Assembly: GCA_964460795.1 (NCBI GenBank)
Contig: CAYWRU010000002.1
Span: 1,173-65,172 of the forward strand
Length of the DNA stretch: 64,000 nucleotides
Direction of reading: 5' to 3'
Origin: an uncultured bacterium
Lineage (GTDB): Bacteria; Omnitrophota; Omnitrophia; Omnitrophales; Aquincolibacteriaceae
The translations under genes and the position numbers were made by a program. Position 1 is the stretch's first letter; each line of letters begins with the position of its first letter. Of this stretch, positions 21,001-44,890 are shown one piece after another. The notes beneath the pieces are model-generated. The model saw only the letters and a list, made by a program, of their open reading frames with translations. It had not been told where the DNA came from and did not search any database.

Positions 21001-24000
21001 GCGCAATGGCAGCAAAATCAATATCGCTATATTCAAAAACTGAATGAGAGGCTGTTTCAACGGAAATCTCGACATCGTGAATTTTAAATTTTTGAGGCGC
21101 ATTGAGATGCGGACCGTCCCGAGAGCCATAAAACATGACGGATGCCATAATGCCTGTGAATCGCCCGATCCACATCATCAACTCATCAAAAGTCGCAGCC
21201 CCGTCTTTTTTATCCACGGCTCCGGTACCCCTTCCAAAAGTACGGGGTTCGGTCGTCCGCACCTCGGAGCGAGGAAGTTGAACGGCGCCCGGATGGTTTG
21301 AAGGCAATAAGTGATGGGGAAAATCAGTGACTTCATGGAGGACATAACTCTTACCATCCAAAATCATAGTGTCGAGGAGTTTCAGCGTAAGGCGGTAAGG
21401 GATGGGAACATCCTGGATCGATTCGGCCCGCGATGGATAGACCATCCTGGAGTGCCGATGCTTCGAAAGAAAATAAATTTTCTCAGCGGATGCGAACAAG
21501 ATTTCATTTCCCCTACTGAAACCGTAGTCAACGCCGGTCACTTTTTGAATGCCGGCCTGTTCTTCGAGACGTGAGAGAAGACGTCGAATCTGATAAACTT
21601 TGAGTGCCGTCAAGTAATCCGCTAGGCCCGCAAATATCCCCAAGAAGCTGGTTCCGGCTAACAGCAAACAGGACCCATCCATGACAGTTAAAAAGGGAAA
21701 GCTGGATAAATTCCAGAAAGCAGAAAAAGTAGTGACGAAAATAGACAAGGTAACGAATGGACCGCCCAAGGCAATCAAAACTCTCTGCCTCGCCGTAAGG
21801 CCAAATGGTGTGGTGAAGAATTTAGTGTAACCAGCGGAGACAGAGATGGAAACTCCACGAATGCTGTCCAGGTCTTTCAGCTGGTAATATTTTGCAACCA
21901 TCCAATGCCCCATTTCATGGGACCACACTATGGTGAGATAGCTCAAGGGAAAAAGAAAGAGTGGGATTGCAAACCCACCCAATAGATCACGGATCAATCC
22001 ATTCATGATAAAACCAGCGGTGCTGATAAGAACCAGTATGGCCCAATGTTCGAATCGCCGCCCCAAAAGATGTCTATCCAGAACCTTGTGAAATCGCTTC
22101 ATCCACGAAATTTGTGAACCGCTCAAATGGACGGCGCGAAGTTGTTTTTCAAAAGCGTCTTTAATACTTTCTTTTCCTTCTCGTACTTCAGAGCGCTCAT
22201 GCCTGCTTGTCCGCCGTAGCTTTAGCGAAGGAGGATCCCCCGCGCCGGTGCCTGGCACGTTCTCTCCGAATGTCCCTCTCGCAGTGAAGTTGCCTCTTAC
22301 TGTGGTGATAGTATCCGTTGCGATCTTGAGCGTTGTCATATATCCTGCTTCCATGAAAACCATTGCGGAGGAAACCCATGGTTGAAGCCACCATTGCCAT
22401 CGCTGGAATCGGAATTTTGGTTGCGGTTGTATTTTTTTGGGAACAATACCAGCAAAAACGCCCTCCCCAGAATCCTCGCCGGCCTTCGTAACACCGGAAT
22501 CATCTAACCGAGCCCCACGGGCAGTCATTCCCGGCAAACCGGTGGTGGGTTCGGTTTTTTGGTTTTGAAAGACATAAAAGCCTTCATTGCTGAAGGTTTT
22601 GACAAAACCATGTTTTGCGAGTGTTTTTAAAAGAAGTTGATTGTGCTCATCGGCAGGCTTTCCCTCCCCGTTTCCGTCCGCACCGATAACAAAATGTCCG
22701 CCGTTTTTTAAGACCCTCCGGACTTCTTGGATCGCCTTGTCATAAAATTCCTCGATGCTTTGTCCCGGATCTTTTACGATCAAACCGTGATAATGGGATA
22801 CAAAAAGAAAAATGCTGATCACGGTATCAAAGGAGTTGTCCTGAAAGGGCATGGCTTGGGCTGTGCCGTGAAAATAACCGCGCTTCGGATCATCCGAAAG
22901 ATCTGGAGACAGACCCATCATATTTTTTCCTTGTTTACGAAAATAGGTCACAAGATTCTCATTCAGAACCTCGTCGCTAAAGTCATCATTTTCCACATCA
23001 AGATTTAATAAAGAGCCCTTAAGCAGCGGTTCGACATGGTACCCGTCCGATTCCGCTAGTGCGGCATAAGTCCTCCAATAATTCACATGCCCGGAATAGG
23101 TGGGAGCAAAAATCTCATCACGGCTTCGAACTTCCGCCCGATTCGAGTGAACCCGTGCGCCTGTTTCGATTGAGCCAGTGGATTTTTTTAGGGCATGGGC
23201 GTACTGGCCGACTGGCACACGCGCTGACTGGCTCACTGGCTCACCGGCTAACTGTTTTTCCATTTCACGAATTTGAAGAATGGGGTCCGCGGATTTGACT
23301 TGAAGCGCGGCGGATTCAAGAGCGCGGAGCTCGGCACGTGCTCCGGCAAACGGCATGGACTGCCAGCGCGCGAGACTGCTGAGCGGACGAGCCGTTTGAT
23401 CCGAAAGTTCATAGTCCATAGTCCATGGTCCATAAATTTTTTTTGAGTTTAATTTGGAATTTGGAATTTGAAATTTGAGATTTGTTTCGGATTTCGAGTT
23501 TCGAATTTCAAGTTTTTCAAATGCATACGACCGTCCTATCATCAATTTTTGGTAACGCCGCTGATGCCGTTCGCTGGTGCGCGTAATCATGGGAAGAATA
23601 GATTGGCAGGTAATCCCCTGTTCACGCAGCGCATCCAACACCGCGGGTTTATGAAATCCGCCGAAGACCAGGACGGCTAATTTCTGATCCGGATCGGATT
23701 TAAAATCGCGAATCGCTTTTTCCATGATCCGGTCGCGCGCATGGGCCGTTAAATAAAAACGAATCGCTTTTTTGATTTTGTGCTCCCAGCCTTTTGAAAG
23801 CAGAATGGGCCGGCCGGTTTCATGCGCCAGAAAATCCGCAAGACCATCGGTTTTAAATTCATTTAGAGTTTTCATGGCACGCTTGAACTCTTCGGGGCTG
23901 GCTGTAATTTTTTCGACTTTGCTGAGAAGCGAAAGGGCTTCCAAGGTTTGGAATATTTTCTGCTCGCGGACTCCGGCCAAACACTTCTTCACCCCCTCTT

Positions 24001-24961
24001 TCTCTAAATCGGCTATTTCTTGCTTCAATTCGGTGAGATTGAGGGCCTTTAAAGCCTCGACTTGCTTTTGATCGCTCGACTTTTCTGAGAAAAGAAGCAG
24101 CTTGATTTTGGGAAAAGATCCCGGCGGAAGCGCTCCAAGCTCCAGGGTCGAAAGCGTTTGTTTCAGATAGTCTAAAAGGCCGAGTTTTTCAGATTCATAA
24201 CGCTCCCGCAGTTTCATCCAGGATTTGAAAGCCGGGGGAAAATGCTGCATCCCTAAATTTTGAAATTCCCGGGTGAGCTCGGAAAGATCCTCTTCAATCG
24301 ACTCACGGACTCGAGCAGCTTGGCCATACCAAGCGATGTTATCGCGGTAATATTTCAGACTGTCCGCGCCAATCAATCGAAAATCGAGTCCATGGTCCCC
24401 GCCTGCCGCTTCGCTCCGGCGGGCAGGCATGGTCGATGGTCCATAGTTGGATTTTTCACTTTGGTTTTTTGGACTAAGGTCTGTGGACTGTGGTCTATGG
24501 ACTTGCGGCGTCCGCCGCAGGATATGCGCATACTCAGCTCCCCCGATCCGGAGATGATCCATCAGGAAATAGGCAATGCGCTGACGGATTTCGGGACTTT
24601 GGATGTCCTGAAAATATTTGTCCGTGGGAACTTCGCCTTCGTAGCCTTCTTCGAAAACGGTCTTAACTCCCCGGTGCTCCACAAGGTATTGGACAAGTTT
24701 GGCGATGTTTTCCTGCGCCTCTAGGGAGTCGTGAGCATCCTGGATGTAGAGGATGGTCTTGGCAGCGGGTGCAGGGAAAAATCCATCCACACGGCCGATG
24801 GATTCAGGAATAGAAATGACGGACGAAGCCGATCCAGTCAATGCGCTTTGGAGTCCGAGAGAGCTGGCGTAACCTCCGGTGTCACTCCAAAGAAATGAAG
24901 CAATGACGATCAGCGCGCATAGACGTCGCTTCCATAGATAGATGGAAAAAAAAGAGTTCAC
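1..24961 (-). CDS. Giant multidomain membrane-anchored protein. This is the 5' 24.96 kb (8,320 complete codons) of an ORF whose stop lies beyond the left window edge.
   Basis: The minus-strand frame with codons starting at + coordinates = 2 mod 3 has an in-frame TAG at 24968-24970. No frame-2 ORF is reported anywhere below it. All 16 short minus-strand ORFs listed for 1-25000 are in the other two frames, so any frame-2 stop would have produced a long listed ORF. The track evidently drops ORFs that lack a stop in the window. The start is GTG at 24959-24961 with AGGA at 24966-24969. The N-terminus VNSFFSIYLWKRRLCALIVIASFLW looks like a signal anchor. I checked the frame by hand at more than 25 positions spread from 404 to 24722. 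Confidence 0.85.
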   Translation of the reverse strand, partial: MNSFFSIYLWKRRLCALIVIASFLWSDTGGYASSLGLQSALTGSASSVISIPESIGRVDGFFPAPAAKTILYIQDAHDSLEAQENIAKLVQYLVEHRGVKTVFEEGYEGEVPTDKYFQDIQSPEIRQRIAYFLMDHLRIGGAEYAHILRRTPQVHRPQSTDLSPKNQSEKSNYGPSTMPARRSEAAGGDHGLDFRLIGADSLKYYRDNIAWYGQAARVRESIEEDLSELTREFQNLGMQHFPPAFKSWMKLRERYESEKLGLLDYLKQTLSTLELGALPPGSFPKIKLLLFSEKSSDQKQVEALKALNLTELKQEIADLEKEGVKKCLAGVREQKIFQTLEALSLLSKVEKITASPEEFKRAMKTLNEFKTDGLADFLAHETGRPILLSKGWEHKIKKAIRFYLTAHARDRIMEKAIRDFKSDPDQKLAVLVFGGFHKPAVLDALREQGITCQSILPMITRTSERHQRRYQKLMIGRSYAFEKLEIRNSKSETNLKFQIPNSKLNSKKIYGPWTMDYELSDQTARPLSSLARWQSMPFAGARAELRALESAALQVKSADPILQIREMEKQLAGEPVSQSARVPVGQYAHALKKSTGSIETGARVHSNRAEVRSRDEIFAPTYSGHVNYWRTYAALAESDGYHVEPLLKGSLLNLDVENDDFSDEVLNENLVTYFRKQGKNMMGLSPDLSDDPKRGYFHGTAQAMPFQDNSFDTVISIFLFVSHYHGLIVKDPGQSIEEFYDKAIQEVRRVLKNGGHFVIGADGNGEGKPADEHNQLLLKTLAKHGFVKTFSNEGFYVFQNQKTEPTTGLPGMTARGARLDDSGVTKAGEDSGEGVFAGIVPKKIQPQPKFRFQRWQWWLQPWVSSAMVFMEAGYMTTLKIATDTITTVRGNFTARGTFGENVPGTGAGDPPSLKLRRTSRHERSEVREGKESIKDAFEKQLRAVHLSGSQISWMKRFHKVLDRHLLGRRFEHWAILVLISTAGFIMNGLIRDLLGGFAIPLFLFPLSYLTIVWSHEMGHWMVAKYYQLKDLDSIRGVSISVSAGYTKFFTTPFGLTARQRVLIALGGPFVTLSIFVTTFSAFWNLSSFPFLTVMDGSCLLLAGTSFLGIFAGLADYLTALKVYQIRRLLSRLEEQAGIQKVTGVDYGFSRGNEILFASAEKIYFLSKHRHSRMVYPSRAESIQDVPIPYRLTLKLLDTMILDGKSYVLHEVTDFPHHLLPSNHPGAVQLPRSEVRTTEPRTFGRGTGAVDKKDGAATFDELMMWIGRFTGIMASVMFYGSRDGPHLNAPQKFKIHDVEISVETASHSVFEYSDIDFAAIARSAVEKYFAASPDERSEAELKKRGIHFQIHEFTMKSVKRGFGPAQWRLLLRVNDYRGETFFLKRDHKTRQEFETALEQHFIRYISVWLAHREHLKSKQLSENRVYASIRRTEFLKKFIPSAAGVSLGVWAIVLAFREFQVNERPAPSAPKKQSRAISRGIERLRDSKVFAYASLSFFLMLGIFAYYRESVSYLGGASSIDWKPLRTFASHYLNDALYVPGVTGITYLWTYAFLIILSLFRLSANTLKTWATTLRIMIVLRVIYFMIDGMGQEQGQFYKTEAGTWDPWDVVTYAVTGIFSLLFVYAASFAPFTRGRVRSPSSTQSAKSVPGTGAGGKAGRSEMRGNLLPIFLALVTPGIVGGLLYLVPRLWHLIKFFRIKSYWNWREQENERREESLRSISQNDRVLKIMEAIHKAWKTHGALGDYEALMNKILYIDMVISHHLAPDFSWDASGVTQFYQEDHDKALQYLEKMEIWLREMHKKNLTVESKADRGTLNHKLITLDQERASVQRLQDPYYVAHHVLDFMIDHPSLFPGIHKTVDAQNPKDWQKWQYTYQPSTTDRRSEIRGITREEAIRRLEAALKKTYFSGLADFDGNLTPDGSKEADESALLKIQNLLGEGIPYGLVSGRAEHVTDTDARARGVHDVAEVAHRIREGLSGAELSNFILFPENGSYAAWDELEDGRLVRKEVDLVKKYGVVAKDFIFTPEEREAILQDILKHLESRGFKHPFVFKEDKRYGFAAWVDIKPEWTTQNEVNRQINQMTAEVREFLQSHAHQKFHLFEPLATSVSIDIMVKGVDKALALRFMAERFGISQDEVVGTDDKASREGNGWSLTKHAAGFSTNEFEPDSEYQIPLALAWNATGLQAWLKLHEKLRFESSLDPLRIGVFADTPSLLQAMKAQLEKEFHGKILIESFCKIQPHYGALNWIVKRKRSLEDRWQIYEEGRLIAEGGLESMAHLLHLDFSRPVKRAEMRTSPSITENTENVPGADLDRGDRPMPFVPNPGESGKNALPSSGVNISKISNRSELRDMIFEMDAEAIRRRIHEIQKTYPHQAAFQFSIKAHSSALEIHVRSKGQIYSLDHVSGFFIHSDGKVYVAQTDSELSEKRTYKSLDADGVWSTLNAEALAPELFDQFQLIDKGLYYRAMLRKIIAFDPAAHPEPRMHEHSREFWTQLHRNFFQQALDYLNDEKAKKYPETNELRACRLHFKVFGGMDKINALLRAVLGSAAHYDRLLSDRNNPLWNLLREGHKINRLLVGLDTDLDPEVPKVMADASLMDERLDLDAFRKNTVTSLRVLNTQAESVQASEAPHQWRPGVEADNFLSVWANLSLGLRPYLRSEYELAALLKKVLDVRFLPAEPAGSSKGGLNLPPRLELTLKEPWIDPAAEFHGNASKPKSMKKVEVVILKSPLDPVPQSEDIPALEYDEAVVQAYAFHAGMSPEEKVSILRKLLVELALSRRLLPKTRQHARSFEARKLYSRLITRTDAEFQATQAQLKLEQDHELRTYGIQAPSAIPVGADKTLLSNFDQSAREIRRQLSPWTSAEFLKTKAGLNAAQNYPGFDNRAEFFVRFDTLSDFFFPVLALFLVPRKETAKGGSAWELHKNNIFPWETKFKMIQPLIDHAGPLLSRYLKISPEGSHDPAARDFYIALNLAFIVWMGLDSHDMLKEANAFYLRDRLNFFMQQTAPGQGGLPDFYHQWDAAVRESESLKLQSVGLETQMKQLAVADYSKKVSTELEQVFESYRTSVRRIQELSIVQKENTPPSFDLSSPEAFLASVEKIHNWALTPSLRSELRSNGEPWETRMAHFQKLIDFRKMLETGSVAEVETVIKTMPPEFREIGHIFTRLLDARRRDTSVRQAALPPAKPAPEPQTLSLEDWLVQDWPGGKNKIPAERQKLIDRASPILDLFAPVLRLFLTKKEGTSQALVSAADMGRFSSGISQVEPFIKILETLLPASEPIRKNLRDISDEKNKLGYLSVLNAAFFKQAGFDNPNMIKEPGALAAVRQTFIKLIQERFDPSGEWANLLDRVEVTDQRPEVAAEPGHDGALASLWEIVLQNPTDLLMALETQAEAVKEQLTQEKFQSTDFKVFVRPWKTASQFEEVAAQIAQEFVPQSDQANEKLRVLQLDKVEKFKNFILLLRTWRDMPEAESKKKKLFAAGIAYREIFLALSPEEQGRLSGCIKGVITFQADLEHRTQIWKGLLGGVERFLDPAKGDLSRAKEKLKALELQPLLPGMDETILHLARLKKTIQDREAAILAEKADRNARSGKIKTQTLLLDHADTLMRQLEKALEKNLVPESETLSSNKEEIEKNWAAASEPDLMDRVSKQRTRLEGILKNAADLKEVQEKAAAAEKLRLEQAAQRQKVQTLFDQALKSLQAGDVETAEAQYLAAKEALPPEMKPEFHETIKEVGHQVYQAKTRQVSSLSIPPRDLAPPSEPAKKVETALQTEARRIYELARQKGEWGGLNGFVQGVIQQLMSGKTLSSGDARRFRKYDPGQFKNEVHEAISVLAQSNLRSEIRAHTRPLSKAQKKWLKKRAGLYGEKLHELLQETSKAIRENDKAAFAQSMDSIKRLSDLLLRYGLMSSMSIYDINNPLAALETMGEIGDDLRKGKTRKEQMLQRLRMHARFLIRYSRSSKPTKFYTIKIYPKNFTEIHEVEPVRYDGSKPLELIFSPILTSGKPYQKRFVALPFTLRELEQVIEYKTRKKDPAEVKKYLEAYAQDGFGPVDFSRAQHRTRSSQRSEVRMGEETEMGLSDPLALTTTRLAGLVKGNSELVESFERRHLLTVPDDDRPYVLLDIENTELAIQEAEENIAELRERLPHLPEHVQSTIRNLLYRYEQKRSRLLGFKEVITGFIKNPQHASLKPWVGKNAYLIDELQKAQKRSEIRKINPNFAFDHAQRKASTAGNRSEVRGASSPNELEVSTPTKGNLDAASATQWNESAVFFPPSGFHLPGREARELYEFSEKVQAMYARMNQRMQRLLNDPQFDITPQFTPSNDSLFVMPDNPGLNPGAIRHPDFGPRLGGRGDNLNLNPLAEEPVLKRHLAITAHQMALWEALKELMKGSHPAAVLGASRGVAAAYYASGALSPEDAAELVYRGTQFLEAVARLSGERQMAVVSNISFGEAEKFLEEHHAALSVQYSDKRFAVSFPKGKGESLQQVVESRGGKFLLVLHDITSHDPSLVNEKTQDLFKGYREFLTSLKSRMKRPEIPLYSVLRPGELLDSPEKIIEEEIGSITHSLHLEKALPALIQKTDAKNVIGLGYGKNYFLQRLVKEGAIAPSVTASQALDSAGLQAIQESLNRSEIRSQPLEVQSTATLKFHMHERASTQIYGKYLANLSDPDEFEWRYRLIKKGRMGEEEFIVSPLGLLMNATELQPGAQIRIYVRSSQYSKEILDRLVTYAAFVFSHHEEVGTESVIDRIPTSASEKLILEERNRLVEDLFKLGLDLRPRPLDEMLEQLLKAQPKNDAADTSRSESGLKSVPPQTASRWRISPEQAEEVYGKIYTEMAQVPGWNGAVFRKSRTEFGYYASSDPKDLPGLVKELNLASHEPITFLDLGSGQGDLLFALALLNPNLHLIGIEGMQGFVRDGFEILDALVFQTPRIRNQIQMHAVDFYGTAASRLISKADVLYYYGFGTWDEQQLADTLAKSMKPGARFIVYKNFENIHPLLLATERFECLQGPNLQDSDSPFRTYQLRARSELRKSRAALRAFDTIISYFSTADFTLYELMSKISDVGRGGLHKALQQLLQCRLIRELEGLRNHAKIYRLNLQDLKRINEVEFLLGEFTERDNVAILAEQFQRIHDAQPLFSIPKEPVHFSQKLSEFGVSNVSTVHLNTYLIFEFMQNHFTDYPVRASSMFSLTEGMTQTTFNKQLGFLKELGLIYQSDKGGTINPADKKADLWFLAPKFADLQRTALGNALKNYAYHHNLEALKLQIQQALAGHAVEFKIPQPSTDADAADAELQKLFPEATGASSETPMSLGRFLSALEEVQKETQHPRENQIAKKMGITSFRLRRWARAYKINLRELGVWGLQFPKSKERFEVLIDQALQRLRQGNPVYQIMPIPLNDFAKELHVAGTDSIQNTALQYGIPLAQKGIVVPEVFMKLDSNASRILEAKARDHLAALGIKTPSLAAISYVLGAGNVRTTYASWLSAHGATQADAPLTETERTLLIPYYQHWRESLPVQRRNAKTQYIQKLIQTAEKRWQAAVHYRDATMGVRAKEALSAMGQETPAVSLRKKQHEKPEPPKPPALHMQTGMTGLKHLGMVRLARDKIERDKKRSEVRAEFNLEPINLAFGNPKAGIVFAEKLARYFPKGFPDDLDIEAIRKHWERKYRIRLTGVDLEPLFLAALEMKGQVPPLSSYNILRPAEPIDTASLFESDEADIILDRIRLVKQIYGRLSFESRKILMTPAVLAVFLGLRPAYVQGSVFDASDPSISPLYEELSRWHRVEDLGIGLVFTNTCIFSPYLLGAEVLGKKDLLLLTGSVDPEAKSHLDWLGEAYENNDLERFSEYSIALFSSLFDWMVRNPVSEPVIMGTFLGYPDSVIEDYHHAASEGELSRLKQQYLDFLGISISVKGESGYLQEEAERYLQKIEEALYEAYAYLKQEPDFKKIAEELSLPYQVFERQPMSFDYRNPESNGDSFLPSEKAGSESGVKVRRAPLLLNPPSEKPAELQGIQVASRSEATRVNLLALGESILRMEEQRWNRLLNGKKRYEQLLDYFRGRLHDSVASAAELQKEIEQYVEVPGLLDEEAVVSAALRLATQDPDQIEGRILEMASTVQQENDTAIQNASGRFKDVLAKHEPLWKNIAYAKNTASKLAARLHWENPIVETPYVTLAIHQMLYVVVLSVIQILNEPDFASRPETENVIAFLKWLEKQPKLMEEKVAEGEKPRLQPLGDLVLGALYLLSNTQDETAGAHLVASNLWALDVVIDRYNIRDDDKAELASEGKLAYQEFLPQFKPQNGIRFFEQAKPAAQAKIKKHLGKTTRHLRREVALPILASAVEGEEDRLEVLVDNSILDWFPSLDVQAMARFIQRFKGSLSGEEAFFFEKWKEDPNEALIPLWAKERGMTVQEAEQIFDRMMYQMRLAAVDSKIMTRDEFVRVLKIVELQKKNQKARTQRFRTGILRPLRDSSAALPTRIRWSSAQTVSKTPPRSEMRNAEEVVEKIFKNPVYGRDFIRQFRAPQKAQKQRGKAWKLLSNAETLILNEHFGVSAGEPNKSLEQITADHGMTMAATLHSFRYALQKILHNFDSYFPESSSQPLQYLQWNHTDYHGDMAFGYYGSPGMVQLYRSGDILRYKVSLKDRPIGTAAIAVRHGSIAYTEVTLPSPEDYELQSLLRYRLNEFMPRPLSESRSEMRSKKIAALLARHPQDLAGLSLNQAAGVMGILVSRLHAYFKKHPEASKQGIVLGHKPDAEHVLPEHLKNSDFVAKVLPDDGDEWTPLTEIEQRVVRDFYGLKGASKKSHLEIAKESGRSDRRDSNNFLRSARVKLESFYELGLWNEGPTPEVLNRETDFGFLGYSYRIGLPRWIKGLRENLGIKTLEQLRNASDKDLLGIPALGKIKLQQIKDFLAAYHLEKTPEGSAKRSELRKERRNTQEIFRGLQTKEMGIIFAEVMPEMTQEARDSAAQMVRNFSSVRKLYEEAAQSLKVSMESLTTQNADGISPPVFHLLTALLYQTALYKTWEENLHGKLKPAFLTGRGLGLVPAMLVSGAVTVHDFFPVLKKCLEKMDTQRRPYGVMTLQGTDIEMKSLLHKNPGEPGLVLLHDALPVSADFGFSHESSDALLHFPVQAPLFNESTRETDYRDFGRIDYPVWDLQTQYPFLSPETQMEILVALSRIPYHGVSMPVLSSSARKEKWLRSGADFQTAIADALSHPIYWSQLVKNLNNLSSEIKIKILVMMGAHDSLETITQDLAPQRSVVSLNTDHAVLQAVLGLMGVKGGFIFPWKSTVPPTTLSVETAVPGISVKIKTLEPGYWAESAWEEIKKQAADFPMKAEDIQWLETALHAGPLEAVFVEYPLDPLDPKLGTRIWLQSLISVHHQITFELPERAHLHSKAIQKALNTHRNDPEKIMSKQMQSLPFSVSLVKEDHAFGVHLVLDHRHPILVEVMKSRENDAVTSAMPPAIISVPAPSSMVNISKNPKIQIEVHPEVLSHLRDGRDGLPFLLSEMANQGFYFSHYATLRDIERIVASGAWYTVQIFPAPVTPSDSGNEGAIWVRSPLRRGLPHHLSTSDYHVYRIPTSLLPPDPSLIQSLSPELRERLAEETGLPIHEVRKRGLDPVADPARLNIYLNGTLVSNWLPNWGEDFYRKLENQRKVLAWLQTFPMGEHVTPQNPQLYRVLFEGPNRLFIREASWDVRADRDLPSEPGVAVAHPMNAIHRKGDTPSIVSPPKIPSVAPPPGYETPRDDQPDWHWQAAPDETLLITSGSEERDDGTYPFGDEEQDAPYQHPASRNNISIKAGPELAAAKAQKEDFVKRMRTHFLSLSWEEARREAFIEALFPFYQKWEKQAKQRDVNRPEKIFDEEVKVVLKRLQGVPQDQALEAVKVLAEKAPSANFVFYLDESLAQSLPVYPADEVREKLRDLIQRITVLDGKISRKNFVSAEWNIQDFRTEIFRLHRSIPGLSGEGHQREIYSLVMDILYETFRQASAFANQIKVRFGPMINALPDEEDVFRLLSRHPNEGIGLVVEVRFGNGSFEQLFQAFMFSGVSSDDFAYGFGLFLKKLQEANQPRLLTLFGPHYSQFPPVTGLDIILQRNGHSYPVPLTKLIRKTLEIGDPNQAALEFANGLGRMHLSEEKIFPRMATLTFPNASAADIDSVMHAPEPPAAPRSEVRLVQDQQKVVPRGRSEVRTKPMPTYLKKQEFMNALFPDRGRTWTPLTDFQAKLTKSFYGLKGEIKKNAAALAQQEGKKDRRNIDNFLQQARLKLESFYKLGIWRQDLTLQAWHEIMHRKTDFRFLGKAGVKLNQVHIRTLQQLLEILNSSHP
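149..331 (-). other. Sigma-70 region-4-like HTH module (copy 3, paralogue of 4460-4642)
   Basis: WTPLTDFQAKLTKSFYGLKGEIKKNAAALAQQEGKKDRRNIDNFLQQARLKLESFYKLGIW. It is followed at 1-110 by ...GVKLNQVHIRTLQQLLEIL, which resembles the start of another alpha-CTD-like HhH. Confidence 0.45.
3560..4140 (-). other. Second FabD/acyltransferase-like module with the nucleophile elbow degenerated (GRGLG instead of GxSxG)
   Basis: PAFLTGRGLGLVPAMLVSGAVTVHDFFPVLKKCLEKM, with GRGLG at 3851-3865 (frame verified). The layout is similar to 11150-11990 but lacks the serine. Confidence 0.35.
4240..4385 (-). other. RNA polymerase alpha-subunit C-terminal-domain-like helix-hairpin-helix module
   Basis: LPRWIKGLRENLGIKTLEQLRNASDKDLLGIPALGKIKLQQIKDFLAAYHL, compared with the alpha-CTD pattern L-x-LS-x-R-x2-N-x-L-x3-I-x-T-x2-DL-...-LL-x3-N-x-G-x-KS-x2-EI-x3-L. 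Confidence 0.4.
4460..4642 (-). other. Sigma-70 region-4-like HTH module (copy 2)
   Basis: WTPLTEIEQRVVRDFYGLKGASKKSHLEIAKESGRSDRRDSNNFLRSARVKLESFYELGLW. This is a paralogue of 149-331. Confidence 0.45.
5215..5380 (-). other. Sigma-70 region-4-like HTH module (copy 1)
   Basis: KLLSNAETLILNEHFGVSAGEPNKSLEQITADHGMTMAATLHSFRYALQKILHNF (frame verified 5282-5374). It follows the region 4.2 pattern L-x2-E-x2-hL-x2-hFG-...-(S/T)LEEhG-...-AL-x-KL. Confidence 0.45.
9650..9840 (-). other. Winged-helix (MarR/ArsR-like) HTH-like module
   Basis: YELMSKISDVGRGGLHKALQQLLQCRLIRELEGLRNHAKIYRLN (frame verified at 9722-9780). Pattern resemblance only. Confidence 0.3.
9990..10400 (-). other. Class-I SAM-dependent methyltransferase-like module with an intact glycine loop (DOT1-like spacing)
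   Basis: FLDLGSGQGDLLFALALLNPNLHLIGIEG (10256-10321, frame verified) is followed by VDFYG...ADVLYYYGFG...MKPGARFIVYKNFE. Confidence 0.55.
11150..11990 (-). other. FabD / acyltransferase (malonyl-CoA:ACP transacylase fold)-like module with an intact GxSxG
   Basis: AAVLGASRGVAAAYYASGALSPEDAAELVYRGTQF...RQMAVVSNISFGEAEKFLEE...KFLLVLHDITSHDPSLV. GASRG is at 11756-11770 (frame verified). The order of motifs parallels GHSLGE...MAAV...HS of FabD/AT domains. Confidence 0.5.
18470..19240 (-). other. HAD-superfamily (subfamily IIB-like) phosphatase module
   Basis: The DxD nucleophile motif is SGLADFDGNLTPD (19202-19240, frame verified). A C-terminal VKGVDKALALRFMAERFGISQDEVVGTDDKASREGNG (about 18510-18640) resembles HAD motifs III/IV. 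Confidence 0.6.
19890..20660 (-). other. Polytopic membrane block (about 6 predicted TM helices)
   Basis: Hydrophobic stretches: FIPSAAGVSLGVWAIVLAF, VFAYASLSFFLMLGIFAYY, GITYLWTYAFLIILSLF, TLRIMIVLRVIYFMIDG, VVTYAVTGIFSLLFVYAASFAPF, LLPIFLALVTPGIVGGLLYLVP. Confidence 0.6.
21560..22080 (-). other. Membrane-embedded HExxH zinc-metalloprotease-like module (peptidase M50 / site-2-protease-like)
   Basis: IVWSHEMGHWMVAKYY (HEMGH = 21905-21919, frame verified) lies within hydrophobic helices (WAILVLISTAGFIMNGL, FAIPLFLFPLSYL). A downstream ALGGPFVTLSIFV resembles the M50 GP motif. Confidence 0.55.
22670..23060 (-). other. Class-I methyltransferase-like module with a degenerate SAM-binding motif I
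   Basis: The post-I/II/III region is typical of the Methyltransf_11 type: GYFHGTAQAMPFQDNSFDTVISIF...EVRRVLKNGGHFVIG (22681-22885). The position expected for VLDxGxGxG reads SLLNLDVENDDF (22979-23014), with no glycine loop. Confidence 0.45.
23407..23434. repeat. Family-A half element (left-arm type), in frame inside the giant ORF
   Basis: The sequence gttcatagtccatagtccatggtccata encodes IYGPWTMDYEL and directly abuts the family-B element. Confidence 0.55.
23435..23524. repeat. Family-B low-complexity element (AAATTCGAA / TTTCGGATTTCG stutter), in frame inside the giant ORF
   Basis: The sequence is aatttggaatttggaatttgaaatttgagatttgtttcggatttcgagtttcgaatttcaag. Its reverse complement aligns with 44761-44800 (gaaattcgaaactcgaaatccgaaacaaatctcaaa versus aaattcgaatctcgaagcacgaaatccgaaacaaactcaaaaa). 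It encodes FEKLEIRNSKSETNLKFQIPNSKLNSKK. Confidence 0.65.
23560..24790 (-). other. ChaN / TraB / Tiki (EreA-like) superfamily-like module, interrupted by an in-frame repeat insertion
   Basis: The N-terminal motif KTILYIQDAHDSLEAQ (24731-24760) resembles a GE-H-x-x-H/E motif. The C-terminal motif LAVLVFGGFHKPAVLDALREQG (GGFH at 23651-23662) resembles GxxH. Motif-level resemblance only. Confidence 0.35.
24428..24506. repeat. Family-A palindromic element (GTCCATAG-type stutter arms), full copy, in frame inside the giant ORF
   Basis: The sequence is catggtcgatggtccatagttgg / T-rich loop / actaaggtctgtggactgtggtctatggacttgc. It aligns arm-for-arm with 32102-32181 and translates as VHRPQSTDLSPKNQSEKSNYGPSTM. 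Confidence 0.7.
24860..24961 (-). other. N-terminal signal peptide / signal-anchor segment of the giant protein
   Basis: Hand translation gives V(M)NSFFSIYLWKRRLCALIVIASFLWSDTGGYASSLG: a basic KRR followed by a ~14-residue hydrophobic stretch. Confidence 0.5.
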
Positions 24962-30662: not shown

Positions 30663-33488
30663 CTAGGATTGAAATACGGCAAGAAGCTCTTGCTGGGCCT
30701 TAGCCACCTTCTGAGCATCCAAAAGCTTGGCCTTTTCCTGCTCTACTACTTCCGAGGGCGCATTGCGGACAAAATTCTCATTGGAAAGCTTCTTGGAAAT
30801 GCCTGCGATCCAGCCTTCTAATTCTGCAATTTTCTTCTGAATTCTCTTGCATTCCTCTTCATAGTTCACAAGCCCTTCAATGCGGATATAGATTTCAAAA
30901 TCCTTGAAGGCATTGCCAATATAGGCTCTGGATTTTTTAAAATGAGGTTCTGCTTTAAGCTCTTCCAAGCGGCCCAAGATTTTCATTTGAGGAGTAAAAA
31001 TACGAAAAACCTCCGACGCCTTCGAATGGGACGTCACCACGACTGCTTGGACCGTTTGGGACGGCGGCAAATTCACACGAACGCGTAAATCTCGAATGCC
31101 GCTCACCGCGCTTTGAAGCCATTCGATTTCTTTTTCAGCTTCGGAATCAGAAAAAGGGATCGTCCCTGCAGCAGGGCCTGTCCCTGATTTGGCCGGCCAC
31201 GGGGCAAGCATAATGGACTCAGGCCACGCCGAAGATTCACTAGATATGGATTTAAGATGCTGCCAAAGTTCTTCCGTAATAAACGGCATCCAAGGGTGAA
31301 GCAATCGCAGGATATTTTCCAGCACCTCAAAAAGAACCGCCCGCGTTTCGGCTTGCTCTTTAGCCGTTCCATGATCTAAAACAGGTTTCGAAAGCTCGAT
31401 AAACCAATCACAATAATCATTCCAAACAAAATGGTAAAGTTCGGTTGCTGCCTGAGCGAGTGCAAATTGACTGAGATGTTTTCCCACTGTTTCCGCCACG
31501 TGATTCAGGCGGGATAAAATCCAGCGATTGGGCAATAAACGGCAGTTCTTAGTGCTCAGACTATAGTCTATAGACTGTGGACTAGGGACTGTGGTCTGCA
31601 GTTTTATCATGACAAAACGCGAAGCATTCCAAAGTTTATTGGTGAAATTACGGCCCACTTCAAACTTTTCGCGAGAAAGATAAACGTCCTGAGCTGAGAG
31701 CATGATCATGCTGAAACGAAGCGCATCCGCCCCCATTTCATCAATGACTTCCAGCGGATCAATCGAATTACCCAAAGACTTTGACATTTTGAGCCCGCCT
31801 TCGGCCCTCACTGTCCCATGGATTAAAATCCGGCTGAACGGAACTTCCCCCCTAAACTCCAAGCCGGCCATGATCATGCGCGCGACCCAGAAAAAGATAA
31901 TTTCAGAGGCCGTCACTAAATCCGAGGTAGGATAAAAATGCGCGAGATCATTTGTTTTTTCCGGCCAGCCCAAAGTAGAAAATGGCCAGAGCCAGGAAGA
32001 AAACCAAGTGTCCAATACATCGGGGTCCTGCTTCAGATCTGTGCCGCCGCACGTGGGGCATTTCGAGGGTGTCTCCCGAGAGACGATCACTCCCTTCGGG
32101 GAGTCCATAGTCAATGGTCCATAGTCCATAGTGTTTTTGTTTTGGTTGTTACCTATAGACTGTGGACTATAGTCTATGGACTTGCATTTCATGCAGTACC
32201 ACACCGGCACCTGATGCCCCCACCAAATCTGGCGCGAGATACACCAGTCACGAATTCCTTCCAGCCAATTCGTATAAACTTTAGTCCAGCGGTCCGGATA
32301 AAATTTTGTTTTCCCTTCGCGGTGAGCCTTGAGCGCTTTTTCTGCAAGCGGTTGCATTTTGACAAACCACTGCTTGGAAAGATACGGCTCCACCACGGTA
32401 TGACATCGGTAACAATGTCCCACTGCATGTTTGTGTTTTTCTTTTTTGATGAAAAGCCCAAGAGTCTCAAGATCTTCAATGATTTTTTTACGCGCTGCAA
32501 ATCGTTCCAGCCCCTTGTACACTCCTCCGTTTTCATTGATATGTCCGTCCGGAGTCAGAACATTGATGCGTTCGAGGTTGTGGCGATTCCCCATCGCAAA
32601 GTCATTGGGATCATGCGCAGGTGTGACTTTTACCATGCCGGTGCCAAATTCCCGGTCCACAAAAGTATCGGTGATGATGGGGATCTCCCGATTCATTAAC
32701 GGTAACAGTAACTTTTTACCGTGAAGATGCTGGTAGCGCGGATCCTCCGGATGAACCGCCACGCCGGTATCGCCTAGCATGGTCTCAGGTCGCGTCGTGG
32801 CCACCACAATAAAATCCTTTTCTAGATTTCCACCTTTAATTGGATATTTGATGTGATAAAACCCGCCTTCCACTTCTTTATGTTCAGCCTCTTCATCGGA
32901 GAGTGCAGTCTGACAACGCGGGCACCAGTTGATAATGTAATCGCCCTGATAAATCAGCCCACGTTCATAGAGAGTGACAAACGCTTCGCGAACAGCCTTG
33001 GAAAGTCCTTCATCCATGGTGAATCGTTCGCGCGACCAGTCACAGGAAGCGCCGAGCCGTCGAAGCTGCTTCGTGATCGTGCCGCCGTATTCATTTTTCC
33101 AATTCCAAACCTGCTCGAGAAATTTTTCTCGGCCCAGCTGCTGACGGGTGATTTTTTCCTTCGCGAGTTTTTTCTCGACCACATTCTGAGTTGCGATTCC
33201 CGCATGATCCACTCCCGGAATCCAGAGCGTGTCGCGGCCTTTCATGCGATTCCAGCGCGTCAGAACATCCTGAATCGTGTTATTAAGCGCATGCCCCATA
33301 TGAAGAATGCCGGTGACATTCGGAGGAGGAATGACAATGACATAATTCGGAATGCGGATTTCGGATTGCGGAATATCGCGCTTCTGATCAGAAGCAGGTT
33401 TGAAGTAACCCTTGGACTCCCAAAGCGTGTACCACTTGGTCTCTACATCTTTGGGATTGTAACGATTTGATAAAGTTAAATTGTTCAT
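30663..33488 (-). CDS. valS: Valine--tRNA ligase
   Basis: 941 aa with HIGH (LHMGHALN), KMSKS (LKMSKSLGN), DVLDTWFSS and a C-terminal coiled coil. It carries two in-frame repeat insertions. Confidence 0.95.
31557..31601. repeat. Family-A half element (right-arm type), in frame inside valS
   Basis: The sequence cagactatagtctatagactgtggactagggactgtggtctgcag encodes [16 protein letters not shown] in the anticodon-binding region of ValRS. Confidence 0.6.
32102..32181. repeat. Family-A palindromic element, full copy, in frame inside valS
   Basis: The sequence is gtccatagtcaatggtccatagtccatagtg / tttttgttttggttgtta / cctatagactgtggactatagtctatggac. The arms match 24 of 30 as an inverted repeat. 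It encodes [28 protein letters not shown] between the CxxC pairs of ValRS. Confidence 0.75.
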
Positions 33489-33697: not shown

Positions 33698-33716
33698 AAA
33701 CTATTCCCGGGGCCTT

Positions 33717-33950: not shown

Positions 33951-33960
33951 ATATTATCTC

Positions 33961-34212: not shown

Positions 34213-34240
34213 TTTTAAAACTTCCCTTCTAGCACCTTCT

Positions 34241-35800: not shown

Positions 35801-35808
35801 GTTTACGA

Positions 35809-35890
35809 GAAACCAGTAACCAGTTGCCAGTAACCAGAGATAAAAAGTTAGACTTTCAATTCTGGTTACCGGTTAATGGTTTCTGGTTAC
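35809..35890. repeat. Stutter-arm inverted repeat (CCAGTAAC word) filling the lysC-cimA spacer
   Basis: The sequence is gaaaccagtaaccagttgccagtaaccagag / 22-nt loop / ctggttaccggttaatggtttctggttac. By my count 22 of 29 arm positions are complementary. The right arm overlaps the lysC stop codon (35887-35889). Confidence 0.65.
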
Positions 35891-37119
35891 TTCTTTCGTT
35901 TTGGTCCTTTATCGAGTCCAAACTCTTTGTGAATAGCGCGGATCGCGTCTTTACCGCGTGCGCCTTCGACCACGCAAGACACTTTAATTTCCGACGTCGA
36001 GATCATATCAATATTAATCTTTTGAGCCGCCAGAGAGCGGAACATGCGTGCCGCGATTCCCGAATGCGCCTTCATGCCCACGCCCACGATACTAACCTTG
36101 GCAATGTGCTCATCGCAGCTCACATCTTTGGCGTCCAAATCTTCCGCTGCTTTTTTGACAATTTCCATGGCCCGCCGAAGTTCATTTTTATAAACAGTGA
36201 AAGAAATATCGGTCGAGTGCGTCTGCGTTTTGTTTTGAATAATCATATCCACATTCACATTGCCGTCCGCAAGACGCGCAAAAAGCTGGGCGGCGATGCC
36301 GGGCCGGTCCGGGACTTGAAACAAGGTAACCTTCGCCTCGTCTTCCGTGAGCGCCACGCCGCTGACCACAATGTCTTCCATTGATTTTGATTCTTTGGTA
36401 ATCAAAGTACCCTCCCCTTCATGCTGAGAATGACGAACCACAATCGGAATATTAAATTTTTTCCCGACTTCAATCGAACGCGAATGCATGACCTTAGCGC
36501 CCTGGGCCGCCAGTTCTAAAATTTCATCGTAACTAATGACATCAATCTTTGCCGCATCCGGCACTAAGCGAGGATCCGCGGTATAAACGCCGTCTACATC
36601 GGTATAAATTTCGCAGGTCTTTGCACCCAGCGCTTTAGCAAGCGCCACGGCCGTCAAATCCGATCCGCCGCGTCCGAGAGTGGTAATTTCTTCATTCTCG
36701 GTCTTTCCCTGAAAACCGGCCACAATCACCACAAAACCGTCTTTCAAGGCCTTGCGAATACGCACCGTGTTGATATCAACGATGCGCGCTTTCGTATGAT
36801 ATTGGTCTGTCAAAATTCCCACTTGCGGACCGGTAAAAGAAATCGCCTTTTCGCCGCGTTCTTGAATGGCCATGGCCAAGAGCGACACCGAGACCTGTTC
36901 GCCAGTGGAAAGCAGCATATCCATTTCCCGGTCACAGGGATCTTTTGTAATTTGTTCCGCAAGCGAAATCAAATCGTCCGTCATATCGCCCATGGCCGAG
37001 ACCACAATGACGAGCTGATGACCTTTTTTCTTCGCTTTAATGACCCGGGCCGCAACCTGTTTTATTTTTTCAGGATTTCCAACCGACGTTCCGCCAAATT
37101 TTTGAACTAAAAGAGCCAT
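35887..37119 (-). CDS. lysC: Aspartate kinase
   Basis: 410 aa with LVQKFGGTSVG and C-terminal tandem ACT-like regions. Confidence 0.9.
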   Translation of the reverse strand: MALLVQKFGGTSVGNPEKIKQVAARVIKAKKKGHQLVIVVSAMGDMTDDLISLAEQITKDPCDREMDMLLSTGEQVSVSLLAMAIQERGEKAISFTGPQVGILTDQYHTKARIVDINTVRIRKALKDGFVVIVAGFQGKTENEEITTLGRGGSDLTAVALAKALGAKTCEIYTDVDGVYTADPRLVPDAAKIDVISYDEILELAAQGAKVMHSRSIEVGKKFNIPIVVRHSQHEGEGTLITKESKSMEDIVVSGVALTEDEAKVTLFQVPDRPGIAAQLFARLADGNVNVDMIIQNKTQTHSTDISFTVYKNELRRAMEIVKKAAEDLDAKDVSCDEHIAKVSIVGVGMKAHSGIAARMFRSLAAQKINIDMISTSEIKVSCVVEGARGKDAIRAIHKEFGLDKGPKRKK

Positions 37120-37140
37120 GGGTCCTCAAAATGCTCTAAG

Positions 37141-37212
37141 CTTTCAGATAGCAGATCACAGATATCAGACGAATGTTTTTTATCTGCTATCTGCAATCTG
37201 GCATCTGATATC
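37141..37212. repeat. Stutter-arm inverted repeat (CAGATAGC word) filling the apgM-like/lysC spacer
   Basis: The sequence is tcagatagcagatcacagatatcaga / gaatgtttttta / tctgctatctgcaatctggcatctga, with 21 of 26 positions complementary. Confidence 0.65.
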
Positions 37213-37215
37213 TTT

Positions 37216-38409
37216 TTATTTGGATAGAAATAACTTCATCAACTCACGTCCGTTCGACACCTTAAGCCCCGATACTTTAGCCGTGAGTTCTGTAAATTTT
37301 TCCACGTCATCCGGCATAATATTTTTTCCGGCAATCGTAAACGGAACCGAATCCCGCGTCCGTTTTCCGGTCTTCCACAAGGAAGGCTGGCCGGAGGCCA
37401 CTAAAATCCGCACATCTTTCTTTTTATCCAACAGATCGCGCGCTTTAGAAATCACCCGGTGATCCGCGGCTTCAAGCGCAGAAATTTTATCCCGCAAACT
37501 TCCCATACGTGAAGCTTCGTCTGCGCCGGTGAGAAATACCGTCACCAAATCTTTTTCTTCAAGCGCCGTAGAAAGCGTACGCGCCACAGCGTCCAAATCT
37601 TCCCCTTCTTCCTGGGATGCCCCGATTTCATGCACCGTCAAAGCAGCCAGTCTTCCAAGACCCTTCGCATATTCTGCGGCCCCAATCAGAGCACCCTGTA
37701 AATCATAAAGTTCTGTAAATTTCTGCAGCTGCGGCTGCGGACCCTGACCCCAAAGCCAAATCATATTTGCCGGATTTTCGCCGAGATCCACACGCACTTG
37801 ATTAATTTCGTGATCCTGAAGCAGCAATTTTGCATCAAACATGAGTTTTCGGAGCAGTTCTTCTCCCGGGCCTTTGGGGAAATTATCCTGCAATGTTTCC
37901 CCTACAATTTGTTCAGGTGAAATCGTTTTGGCGGAAAGCGCCGGAAACCCATGCGCATCCTTCAAAACAGCAACGTGACGATATTCGGCTCCGGCAAAAA
38001 AACGCACGAAATCGCTGGCCACTTTTTTATTTAAAAAATTAATCAGCGCCTTGGCTTCTTTGGTCATGAGACCGCCAGCCGTATCATCCGCAAGCCGCCC
38101 TTCAGCTTCGGTAATAAAATTCATACGAAAGGCAACTTCATGCTGATCCATTTTAATTTCAAGATTTGCAGCTTCAAGCGGTCCGCGACCCGTATAAACT
38201 TTGTCCGCATCATACCCCAGCAAATTCATGAGGGTCACATCGGGTGCCGGTTCCAAACGATCCGACGTCAGTTTCACCATCCCAACTTTGCCGAGTTTAG
38301 CAAGCGCATGAAGATTCGTAAGTTTTGCTACTTCAAGCGGCGTCTTTTGTCCCAATTCCTCACACGGCTGGTCCGCGGCGCCTGGAAGTGCAATCACGAT
38401 ATATTTCAC
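37216..38409 (-). CDS. Cofactor-independent phosphoglycerate mutase (archaeal ApgM)-like protein. Its thr-cluster context suggests the proposed alternative homoserine kinase.
   Basis: 397 aa, alkaline-phosphatase superfamily-like. It has a 4-nt overlap with thrC and sits between thrC and lysC. Confidence 0.6.
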   Translation of the reverse strand: MKYIVIALPGAADQPCEELGQKTPLEVAKLTNLHALAKLGKVGMVKLTSDRLEPAPDVTLMNLLGYDADKVYTGRGPLEAANLEIKMDQHEVAFRMNFITEAEGRLADDTAGGLMTKEAKALINFLNKKVASDFVRFFAGAEYRHVAVLKDAHGFPALSAKTISPEQIVGETLQDNFPKGPGEELLRKLMFDAKLLLQDHEINQVRVDLGENPANMIWLWGQGPQPQLQKFTELYDLQGALIGAAEYAKGLGRLAALTVHEIGASQEEGEDLDAVARTLSTALEEKDLVTVFLTGADEASRMGSLRDKISALEAADHRVISKARDLLDKKKDVRILVASGQPSLWKTGKRTRDSVPFTIAGKNIMPDDVEKFTELTAKVSGLKVSNGRELMKLFLSK

Positions 38410-39482: not shown

Positions 39483-39489
39483 ATTGAAT

Positions 39490-39565
39490 CAGTCTTGAGT
39501 GGTGAGTCTTGAGTATTGAGTTAAGCCATTCTCCAACCCACTACTCACAACCCCGCACTCACAAC
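39490..39565. repeat. Stutter-arm inverted-repeat-like element (TTGAGTG word) filling the hom-thrC spacer
   Basis: The sequence is cagtcttgagtggtgagtcttgagtattgag / loop / ccaacccactactcacaaccccgcactcacaac. One arm is G/T-rich and the other C/A-rich, and complementarity needs bulges. Confidence 0.45.
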
Positions 39566-41049: not shown

Positions 41050-41161
41050 CTGTACATGGTACACAGTACATAGACCCTAGTATTCAGGGTGATTCTCCTG
41101 CCTTATATTCATAAGATTTCCCGCACACTATGTACTGTATACTTGGGACTCTGTACTATAG
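41050..41161. repeat. Stutter-arm inverted repeat (GTACATAG word) in the hom / secreted-protein divergent spacer
   Basis: The arms are ctgtacatggtacacagtacatag ... ctatgtactgtatacttgggactctgtactatag. A perfect 11-bp core acagtacatag (41063-41073) pairs with ctatgtactgt (41128-41138). Confidence 0.5.
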
Positions 41162-43843: not shown

Positions 43844-44809
43844 ATGCTGCGCGTTGCGGTCATTGGAATCGGCCACTTGGGAAAAGAGCATGCCCGAATC
43901 TACAGCACCCTTCCAAACTGCAAATTAGTGGGCCTTTGCGATAAGGATTCTTCCAAAAAAGAACGAGCCGAGGCTCTTGGCGTACCTTTTTTTACAGACC
44001 CCAAAGATCTGATCGGAAAGGTGGACGCCATCAGTGTGGCGGTTCCGACTTCAGAACATTTCAGCGTAGCTTCTCTCTTTCTATCGAACGGTGTACACAC
44101 TCTCATTGAAAAGCCCATCACGATCCGCATCCAAGATGCGGATGAACTCATCGCGCTGGCACGAAAAAACAAACTCTGCCTTCAAGTCGGACATATTGAA
44201 CGTCACAATCCCGGGCTTCGACGCATTGAAGAAATCGCCAAGAATATCCGCTTCATGGAAATTCACCGCCTGGGTCCCTTTACCGGGCGTATTAATGATT
44301 GCGGCGTGGTCTTGGATTTAATGATTCATGACATTGATATTGTGTTCAGCCTCGTTAAATCCGAGATTCAAAGTTATGACGCCATCGGGGTCAGCGTCCT
44401 CACTCCTTTTGAAGATATTGCCAATGTTCGCCTGAAATTTAAAAATGGCGCCGTGGTCGATCTGACGGCTTCGCGTCTCAGTCCGGAAAAACAACGCAAG
44501 ATCCGCATTTTTCAGGAAGATGCTTATATTTCACTCGATTACGGCGATCAAAGCGCAAAAATTTTTAGAAAAATTGGTTTTCAAATTACTCAAGAGATCG
44601 TGGACATCCAAAAGGCTGAGCCGCTAAAAGAAGAATTGCAATATTTTCTCCGCCAAATTGAAACCGGAGAAGGATTGGGACATCCGGATGAAGCGGCTCG
44701 TGAAGCGCTACGGTTTGCAGCCGACATTGTTGAAACCATCAAAAACAATCAAAAGGTCATAAATTCGAATCTCGAAGCACGAAATCCGAAACAAACTCAA
44801 AAATCATAA
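43844..44809 (+). CDS. Gfo/Idh/MocA-family NAD(P)-dependent oxidoreductase
   Basis: 321 aa with a Rossmann fold (LRVAVIGIGHLGKEH) and the EKP motif (LIEKPIT). The last ~16 codons are encoded by a repeat element. Confidence 0.8.
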   Translation: MLRVAVIGIGHLGKEHARIYSTLPNCKLVGLCDKDSSKKERAEALGVPFFTDPKDLIGKVDAISVAVPTSEHFSVASLFLSNGVHTLIEKPITIRIQDADELIALARKNKLCLQVGHIERHNPGLRRIEEIAKNIRFMEIHRLGPFTGRINDCGVVLDLMIHDIDIVFSLVKSEIQSYDAIGVSVLTPFEDIANVRLKFKNGAVVDLTASRLSPEKQRKIRIFQEDAYISLDYGDQSAKIFRKIGFQITQEIVDIQKAEPLKEELQYFLRQIETGEGLGHPDEAAREALRFAADIVETIKNNQKVINSNLEARNPKQTQKS

Positions 44810-44885
44810 ATTCGAATGTTTCAAACATTTGAAAATTTGAACTTAGGTATTGTTTCGAATTTCGGATTTAGGATTTTTAAATTTA
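44761..44885. repeat. Family-B element, full inverted-repeat copy, spanning the oxidoreductase stop and the lpxB upstream region
   Basis: The left arm is aaattcgaatctcgaagcacgaaatccgaaac and the right arm is gtttcgaatttcggatttaggattttt. The left arm encodes the last ~16 codons (INSNLEARNPKQTQKS) of the 43844-44809 ORF. The right arm creates the spurious N-terminal extension of the lpxB ORF. Confidence 0.65.
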
Positions 44886-44890
44886 AGCGA

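Follow-up and report, generated by a model that had tools for sequence, protein, structure and literature searches.

Self-complementary heptanucleotide arrays in gene spacers and in the valyl-tRNA synthetase gene of an uncultured Omnitrophota bacterium

What is a long palindrome doing inside the reading frame of an essential gene, and how can the gene bear it? The question is raised by a stretch of 64,000 nucleotides from contig CAYWRU010000002.1 of an uncultured bacterium, called here the window. Its minus strand carries valS (30663..33488), an intact open reading frame (ORF) for a valyl-tRNA synthetase (ValRS) of 941 residues in which both the HMGH and the KMSKS motifs are present; the named ValRS homologues assign the organism to Omnitrophota. 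The T. thermophilus ValRS (1GAX) aligns to this product with an E value of 1.5e-232, and the alignment is broken precisely at a palindromic segment in the zinc-binding (Zn) loop. A first, sequence-only reading of the locus saw in this segment an ~80-bp element that behaves like the Rickettsia palindromic elements (RPEs). We consider it probable that this segment belongs, as a single copy among others, to a class of self-complementary heptanucleotide microsatellites dispersed in Omnitrophota genomes, the architecture of which is two inverted arrays of three to five imperfect 7-nt units each, on either side of a loop that is A-rich on the coding strand.

The two-arm, stuttered element in valS is real. 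It extends over 32102..32182 (minus strand), with arms at 32102-32131 and 32153-32182 and a loop at 32132-32152. In the inverted-repeat search the arms are 30 nt each, lie 21 nt apart, and are complementary at 25 of 30 positions (83%; 24 in the earlier count). On the plus strand, the 32102-32131 arm consists of GTCCATA-type heptamers and the loop is T/G-rich. The 8-mer GTCCATAG occurs seven times in the window against 0.56 expected, a number reached by none of 100 shuffles. A 96-nt stretch with the element folds with -32.3 kcal/mol (z -6.5) on the mRNA strand and -42.3 kcal/mol (z -6.95) on the plus strand. The insert keeps the frame and is placed between the Cys pairs CMKC and CPTC, as first described, with a spacing of 41 residues rather than 42. 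It amounts to ~24-29 extra residues compared with orthologues whose loop is empty (12-17 residues between the Cys pairs). In an AlphaFold2 model of ValRS, residues 439-463 are coil with a predicted local distance difference test (pLDDT) score of 30-33; the segment is thus predicted to be a disordered, permissive loop of the enzyme.

The same periodicity is found elsewhere in the window. Lag-autocorrelation yields 16 runs at lag 7 and 13 at the harmonic lag 14, with 0-2 at lags 4-6, 8-13 and 15, and Tandem Repeats Finder (TRF) gives 17 rows of period 7. The class is concentrated in gene spacers, as very stable stem-loops with no T-run behind them. Three of them belong to the minus-strand gene cluster upstream of valS and lie on the minus strand, each in the spacer of two minus-strand genes. 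The AACCAGT/ACTGGTT hairpin at 35803..35892 (-37.4 kcal/mol, z -7.7) spans the spacer of two adjacent genes, running from the stop codon up to 7 nt ahead of the next ATG. The other two are the TCAGATA/TATCTGA hairpin at 37142..37216 (z -6.0) and the AGTCTTG-type hairpin at 39489..39565 (z -6.1). No T-run comes after any of these three hairpins; the consensus terminator scan admits loops of 3-8 nt only, and is uninformative here. On the plus strand, TTTCGAA-family inverted arrays occupy the junction of two plus-strand ORFs (44761..44886), and a short GTACATG-type array with no strand assigned (41052..41080) is found in non-coding sequence upstream of the 39569..40864 gene. In four Omnitrophota loci totalling 131 kb, picked via valS or the (ACAGACC)3 pattern and so forming a biased census, there are 45 heptamer arrays, 26 of which fall within the 4-9% of sequence that lies outside long open frames. 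The coding arrays of this census are almost all in valS or in a giant ORF.

That giant ORF runs without a stop for more than 8322 codons on the minus strand (window 2-24967), as one frame that extends past the window start. Its N-terminus, near 24900, is signal- or transmembrane-like, and at 23135-23254 it contains an imperfect period-8/24 and period-23 repeat of a non-heptamer type. Omnitrophota have been reported to possess giant genes (bioRxiv 10.1101/2023.11.21.568195). The GTCCATA-family copy in this ORF (24428..24506, minus strand) is in frame (QVHRPQSTDLSPKNQSEKSNYGPSTM), and its family and orientation are as the sequence-only reading had them. The second full copy claimed at this place is a weak palindrome, however: its arms are poorly complementary, the inverted-repeat search finds no inverted repeat of at least 12 nt, and the mRNA-strand fold is weak (z -1.5). 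The frame is that of valS in the 3' arm only (TAT GGA CCA), the 5' arm being one base off. A compound array at 23399..23516 (minus strand) joins a GTCCATA-type 3' arm (23399-23438) to AATTTGA/TTTCGAA arrays (23441-23516), is also in frame, and encodes LEIRNSKSETNLKFQIPNSKLNSKKIYGPWTMDY.

Within valS there are two more sites, both on the minus strand. In a loop of the anticodon domain, 31556..31601 is a remnant 5'-arm array of ACAGTCC/ATAGACT units. It aligns with the 5' arm of a full hairpin in the nearest relative, the 13 codons of the loop and 3' arm having been deleted, and its fold is not significant (z -1.6). The heptamer sequence of this half copy (first given as 31557-31601) is genuine, but the net gain of 14 residues once assigned to it is not, as the remnant replaces the native loop and the span is 46 residues versus 43-44 in most orthologues. 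The N-terminal array at 33340..33376, with CCGCAAT/CCGAAAT units on the coding strand, forms no hairpin (z 0.1) and sits in a loop where relatives have full hairpins. The window has further copies that the first description missed, at this third valS site, at 23399-23516 in the giant ORF, and as intergenic hairpins. Genes tolerate such copies where these keep the frame, bring no in-frame stop, and fall in a surface loop that is disordered.

Comparison with relatives extends this picture. It rests on the 120 best ValRS matches, whose lengths range from 857 to 988 aa, and on four DNA loci (L001, L002, L123 and L124) from independent NCBI and JGI assemblies, in which the lag-7 excess is seen again. 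The nearest ValRS relative among 5.8 billion proteins (L001) is only 76-79% identical, and each of its three valS sites holds a full hairpin, in the codon phase seen in the window. Significant folds of Zn-loop hairpins made of different heptamers are found in four genomes. In the other three loci, the valS arrays are of ACAGACC, CAGACTT, CCACGAA or CGTTCCC, and the orthologous intergenic spacers hold other families (GGATGGC, GCGCAAC). In those spacers, which correspond to window 35800-39570, the heptamer families of the hairpins differ from genome to genome: the site persists and the sequence turns over. Among the 120 ValRS, the N-terminal and Zn loops of many orthologues contain peptides that are direct translations of heptamer arrays, such as TTDHRPQTT from (ACAGACC)n and HEPRTTHHE...RGSWLVARG from (CACGAAC)n and its complement. 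Other orthologues have an empty Zn loop with 12-17 residues between the Cys pairs, in about 20 orthologues all four Cys are missing, and neither T. thermophilus ValRS nor many Omnitrophota orthologues have the Zn-loop segment. With the orthologues arranged by similarity, loops that hold an insert, hold none or hold a different one are intermixed as a mosaic. The three valS loops are recurrent sites across Omnitrophota, and the insert sites are not lineage-specific as first supposed. Metagenomes searched for a valS allele without the insert, with its two flanks 0-30 nt apart, give no match, a negative of little weight because the species may be absent from that collection.

Two other kinds of insert were seen in these loops. 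At the site equivalent to window 31540-31620, the orthologues P0018 (VIPECFYRGSKVLDSRLSAKKKDGPAAMFGGRGNDK), P0013 and P0043 (both LSFPRALSGNL..SPIKTFGDD) have another repeat class in frame in the same loop; these inserts look like translations of another widespread palindromic repeat. The Zn loop of P0013, P0061, P0087 and P0095 contains a conserved non-heptamer insert of ~45 residues (CYP.I.A.LDPKGG.L.PN...P.AH.E.KD), and the second Cys pair of these proteins is altered to CP.GH.

What is maintained at these sites becomes apparent when the window is aligned to its nearest relative. At 4-fold sites in conserved codons the two are 35% identical (114/323), with 68 transitions and 141 transversions, which indicates that these sites are saturated. 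The Zn-loop arms are identical at 41 of 51 bases (80%) and at 16 of 17 third codon positions (Fisher p 1.3e-6), and their differences comprise nine transitions versus one transversion (p 4e-4). The changes sit at codon positions 1 and 2, where they alter residues (SIDYSPQ versus STDHSPR). Since the arms are nearly identical at third positions while residues change, it is the nucleotides and not the peptide that seem to be maintained, and the alignment argues that the arms are held near the family consensus despite saturated neutral sites. Both arms have been altered complementarily between the two genomes, from CACAG/CTGTG to CATAG/CTATG in the window. ATAG-type and ACAG-type words stand at 13:5 in the window copies versus 2:11 in those of L001 (p 0.003), a bias that in the window includes the non-orthologous giant-ORF copies. 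Copies in one genome thus have genome-specific variants in common. Together with the complementary arm changes, this points to homogenisation of arms and copies, or to recent rewriting.

Translation appears to leave its own mark on the heptamer units. In the arm that contains TAG, the in-frame YAG words are four CAG and no TAG, and the out-of-frame words are two CAG and seven TAG (p 0.02), which suggests that in-frame stops are specifically avoided. An intein, an intron or translational bypass can be ruled out, the length being a multiple of three and in-frame stops specifically avoided. The idea that being stop-free decides which heptamer families enter genes was also rejected: the filter is weak, as one heptamer in two has no stop on either strand.

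A model of how such a class persists can be proposed from these comparisons. Arrays would lengthen and shorten by 7-nt replication slippage. The arms, and the copies of one genome, would be kept alike by conversion from arm to arm or copy to copy, or by re-seeding at existing hairpins, and selection on the stem may contribute to keeping the arms alike. The encoded peptide would arise as a by-product, and the only filter on it would be against stops and harmful residues. In E. coli, the REP sequences (repetitive palindromes that are extragenic) and bacterial interspersed mosaic elements (BIMEs) are stable stem-loops of operon spacers that have no T-run, and their mRNA-stabilising function has been tested. 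The heptamer hairpins likewise occupy gene spacers as stable stem-loops with no T-run, and by analogy their role there is probably exerted on the RNA, where they would be 3'-end or processing/stability elements.

Several observations weigh against a dispersed microsatellite class. The census loci were chosen in a biased manner, as described above. No filled/empty polymorphism is seen, in a comparison whose nearest relative is only 76-79% identical. Several coding copies fold non-significantly (z -1.6 to +0.1), and a general requirement for a stem inside genes is therefore unlikely. On inspection, neither the Zn-loop copy of valS nor that at 24428-24506 shows a target-site duplication, and no transposase was identified in the window, the ORFs of which were not scanned for one. 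Finally, as all copies are built of similar words, the arm identity between "orthologous" copies may reflect family membership through recent rewriting, as opposed to long-term constraint. Each of the alternatives fits less of the evidence.

A more far-reaching reading, which is possible but which we hold only tentatively, is that the window samples an undescribed repeat system of more than one phylum. A mechanism of its own, reading in units of 7 nt, would write or homogenise it; it would occupy loops of essential enzymes, and would be conserved as nucleic acid while the proteins merely tolerate it. Hairpin-templated conversion or a hairpin-targeting enzyme may be such a mechanism, and ValRS, LeuRS, SerRS, PurL, HemB and AroA may be the enzymes with repeatedly occupied loops.

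Outside these loci, an exact scan of species-representative genomes finds (ACAGACC) repeated nearly three times in at least 120 stretches. Hosts among the stretches listed are Acidobacteriota, Planctomycetota, Lentisphaerae, Verrucomicrobiota, Bacteroidota, Chloroflexota, Streptomyces, Omnitrophota and others, and an inverted partner array accompanies about 20 of the 120 listed. The crude analysis of ORF context for these 120 loci is unreliable in high-GC genomes, where many long frames are spurious, and six low-GC cases were confirmed by Pfam. In Omnitrophota, Pfam domains span in-frame (ACAGACC)n inserts in PurS-PurL, a MiaB-like radical-SAM enzyme, HemB (a full hairpin) and AroA. The same holds for a DegT-family aminotransferase (a full hairpin) and for LeuRS on a contig labelled Planctomycetia; these in-frame copies count in favour of the dispersed class.

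The (ACAGACC)n arrays or full hairpins of L078, L049, L096, L110, L064, L063, L046, L068 and L043, which include these Pfam-confirmed cases, read in frame as TTDHRPQTTD... A SerRS-like, a peptidase-like and a membrane protein, from several phyla, were judged to be hosts by eye only, and several host proteins have two or three inserts each. A search with a 44-aa idealised TDHRPQT...VDRGPST peptide returned only four tiny ORFs, from a word index that is unsuited to short repetitive peptides.

The first proposal, a discrete ~80-bp mobile element of the RPE type or a MITE (a miniature transposable element with inverted repeats), recently transposed into valS and the giant gene of this lineage, is unlikely. 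It gains from the four GTCCATA-family copies in 64 kb, from the 14-nt end GCAAGTCCATAGAC common to the valS and giant-ORF (24428-24506) copies, from the variants shared by copies of one genome, and from ATAG-type hairpins in other metagenomes. The latter come from a metagenome scan with GCAAGTCCATAG-N30-60-CTATGGAC, which gave 19 matches: two true heptamer hairpins (L126 and L134), 13 representatives of one conserved gene encoding GKSIVLVDDVLYTGRS, and four unrelated sequences or palindromes. From its motifs, we take that conserved gene to be PyrR-like. The L126 (3120-3187) and L134 (1029-1098) hairpins are intergenic, with ends AAGTCCATAG...CTATGGACTT, and they look like terminators because T-runs come next. 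The family as a discrete unit does not hold up, however. The copies measure 45-118 bp and have the heptamer words alone in common, their loops and unit numbers vary, and the peptides encoded by the heptamer copies of the window are not alike. The same architecture recurs in many other heptamer families, including the AACCAGT, TCAGATA, AGTCTTG and TTTCGAA hairpins of the window spacers. Neither a target-site duplication nor distinct terminal repeats are seen, the whole element being an inverted repeat, which separates it from MITEs, and in the closest relative these three valS sites already hold elements, with an unchanged codon phase.

The likeness to RPEs, nevertheless, is partly justified. 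RPEs are palindromic repeats found in frame in housekeeping ORFs, where they are translated and compatible with function, and they have intergenic copies too (PMC10969869). The valS insert similarly lies in frame in a permissive loop of an essential gene without disrupting the ORF, and has intergenic counterparts. RPE families, however, are ~100-150 bp long, each with its own consensus and conserved peptide, and reside in Rickettsia, whereas the heptamer class has stuttered 7-nt arms of variable number, unrelated loops and many families, in an Omnitrophota host; a discrete family and lineage-specificity are the parts of the proposal that fail. Nor is in-frame colonisation rare outside Rickettsia, as the sequence-only reading held. 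The GTAG/CGTC REPs (Di Nocera et al. 2013, PMC3733652) are mostly extragenic short palindromes whose dimers form long hairpins; in-frame cases have been recorded from several phyla, with Opitutus terrae, Thauera and Xanthomonas among the hosts. They encode 20-30 residues, sometimes twice per gene and also in tRNA synthetase genes, and abound in Opitutus terrae, a bacterium of the Planctomycetes-Verrucomicrobia-Chlamydiae (PVC) group (PMC3733652). These REPs resemble the heptamer class in being short, mostly extragenic, and in frame in known proteins including tRNA synthetases. They differ by a terminal GTAG/CGTC tag, stems of 5-13 bp, no 7-nt periodicity, and, for GTAG REPs, a link to REP-associated tyrosine transposases (RAYT). 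In the heptamer class no tag is evident and stems are 25-30 bp of tandem heptamers. The Zn-loop element ends in AAGTCCATAG...CTATGGAC, lacks the conserved GTAG/CGTC tag that a REP or a REPIN (a REP doublet) has ahead of its 5-13 bp stem, and forms a stem of ~26 bp with 7-nt periodicity.

We judge it distinctly unlikely that the segment is a selected cis-acting RNA structure of the valS mRNA, acting as a ribosome pause for folding of the Zn knuckle, in RNA processing, or in autoregulation. Such a role would explain why a strong Zn-loop stem is kept with different sequences in four genomes, where hairpins made of different heptamers all fold significantly. It would also fit a comparison of the window with L001, where two or more of the paired positions differ in both partners (C-G to U-A, G-C to A-U). 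Two to three coding-array sites are found in valS of each of the four valS-anchored loci (window, L002, L123 and L124), and also L001, while other genes there have almost none. On the other side, the insert is absent or reduced to decayed remnants in many orthologues, the window's two further valS sites do not fold, the same elements are found in unrelated genes and spacers, and a search of the whole window at Rfam gathering thresholds yields no match.

Purely local microsatellite slippage, with copies unrelated to one another, is improbable. The units are indeed tandem, imperfect and variable in number. Heptanucleotides are reported to be the most abundant of the longer simple-sequence repeats in most bacterial genomes, and slippage has been proposed as their origin (cited in PMC4679880). 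However, slippage cannot create an inverted partner array, and the same few heptamer families recur across genomes and phyla. Non-orthologous copies have genome-specific variants, and non-periodic sequence is common to copies: the stretch GAAACAAACTCAAAAA is found both in 44761-44886 and in the giant-ORF TTTCGAA-family copies, and the copy within 23399-23516 pairs with that at 44761 (inverted match of 35 nt, 83%). The heptanucleotide repeats of cyanobacteria, the short tandemly repeated repetitive (STRR) sequences, were reportedly described by Mazel and colleagues in 1990. The TAACTGA repeats of Beggiatoaceae and Cyanobacteria are direct arrays, with 169 direct sets versus one inverted set in a Beggiatoaceae genome (PMC4679880). 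The class described here resembles both in its 7-nt unit, in having several families per genome, in being mostly intergenic (as TRF, the lag-7 excess and the intergenic enrichment indicate), and in its phylogenetic scatter. Those repeats, however, are described as direct arrays, neither paired as inverted arrays nor in frame in essential enzymes. The host is not cyanobacterial, and the units (GTCCATA/ACAGACC, AACCAGT, TCAGATA, AGTCTTG and TTTCGAA) are not known among STRRs. Intragenic REPs in frame have been described, and so have heptamer repeats; the two in combination appear to be undescribed, as a literature search of incomplete coverage yielded no account of inverted heptamer arrays that reside in frame in essential genes, or of such repeats in Omnitrophota.

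Two readings remain. In-frame retention in an essential enzyme and the expansion of the same loops in many orthologues could suggest an adaptive peptide that adds a function to ValRS; this is very improbable, as the constraint lies on the nucleotides (16 of 17 third positions) while residues differ, the peptides are wholly different between orthologues, and disorder is predicted for the segment. An artefact of assembly or scaffolding, a known risk where short-read metagenome assemblies collapse or misjoin repeats, can practically be dismissed, since the frame is intact and independent NCBI and JGI assemblies have homologous elements at the same sites.

Around valS, two neighbouring features were recorded. 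The 750-nt spacer on its 5' side (window 33489-34240) contains small ORFs, and in L001 the gene directly upstream of valS (305-835) encodes a four-helix-bundle protein, 23S_rRNA_IVP (PF05635).

After RPEs and intragenic REPs, these arrays would be a third structurally distinct case of selfish or structural DNA in essential genes, this time in a large uncultured phylum. They come with a directly testable signature, a coding region in which nucleotides are more conserved than amino acids. A dedicated mechanism that homogenises the arrays, if true, would bear on why heptanucleotide repeats are over-represented in bacteria. For the proteins themselves, annotation and homology searches can be misled by peptides of low complexity like TDHRPQT, and the inserts mark permissive loops of aminoacyl-tRNA synthetases. 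In Omnitrophota they inflate and diversify protein lengths, as the range of 857-988 aa among ValRS illustrates.

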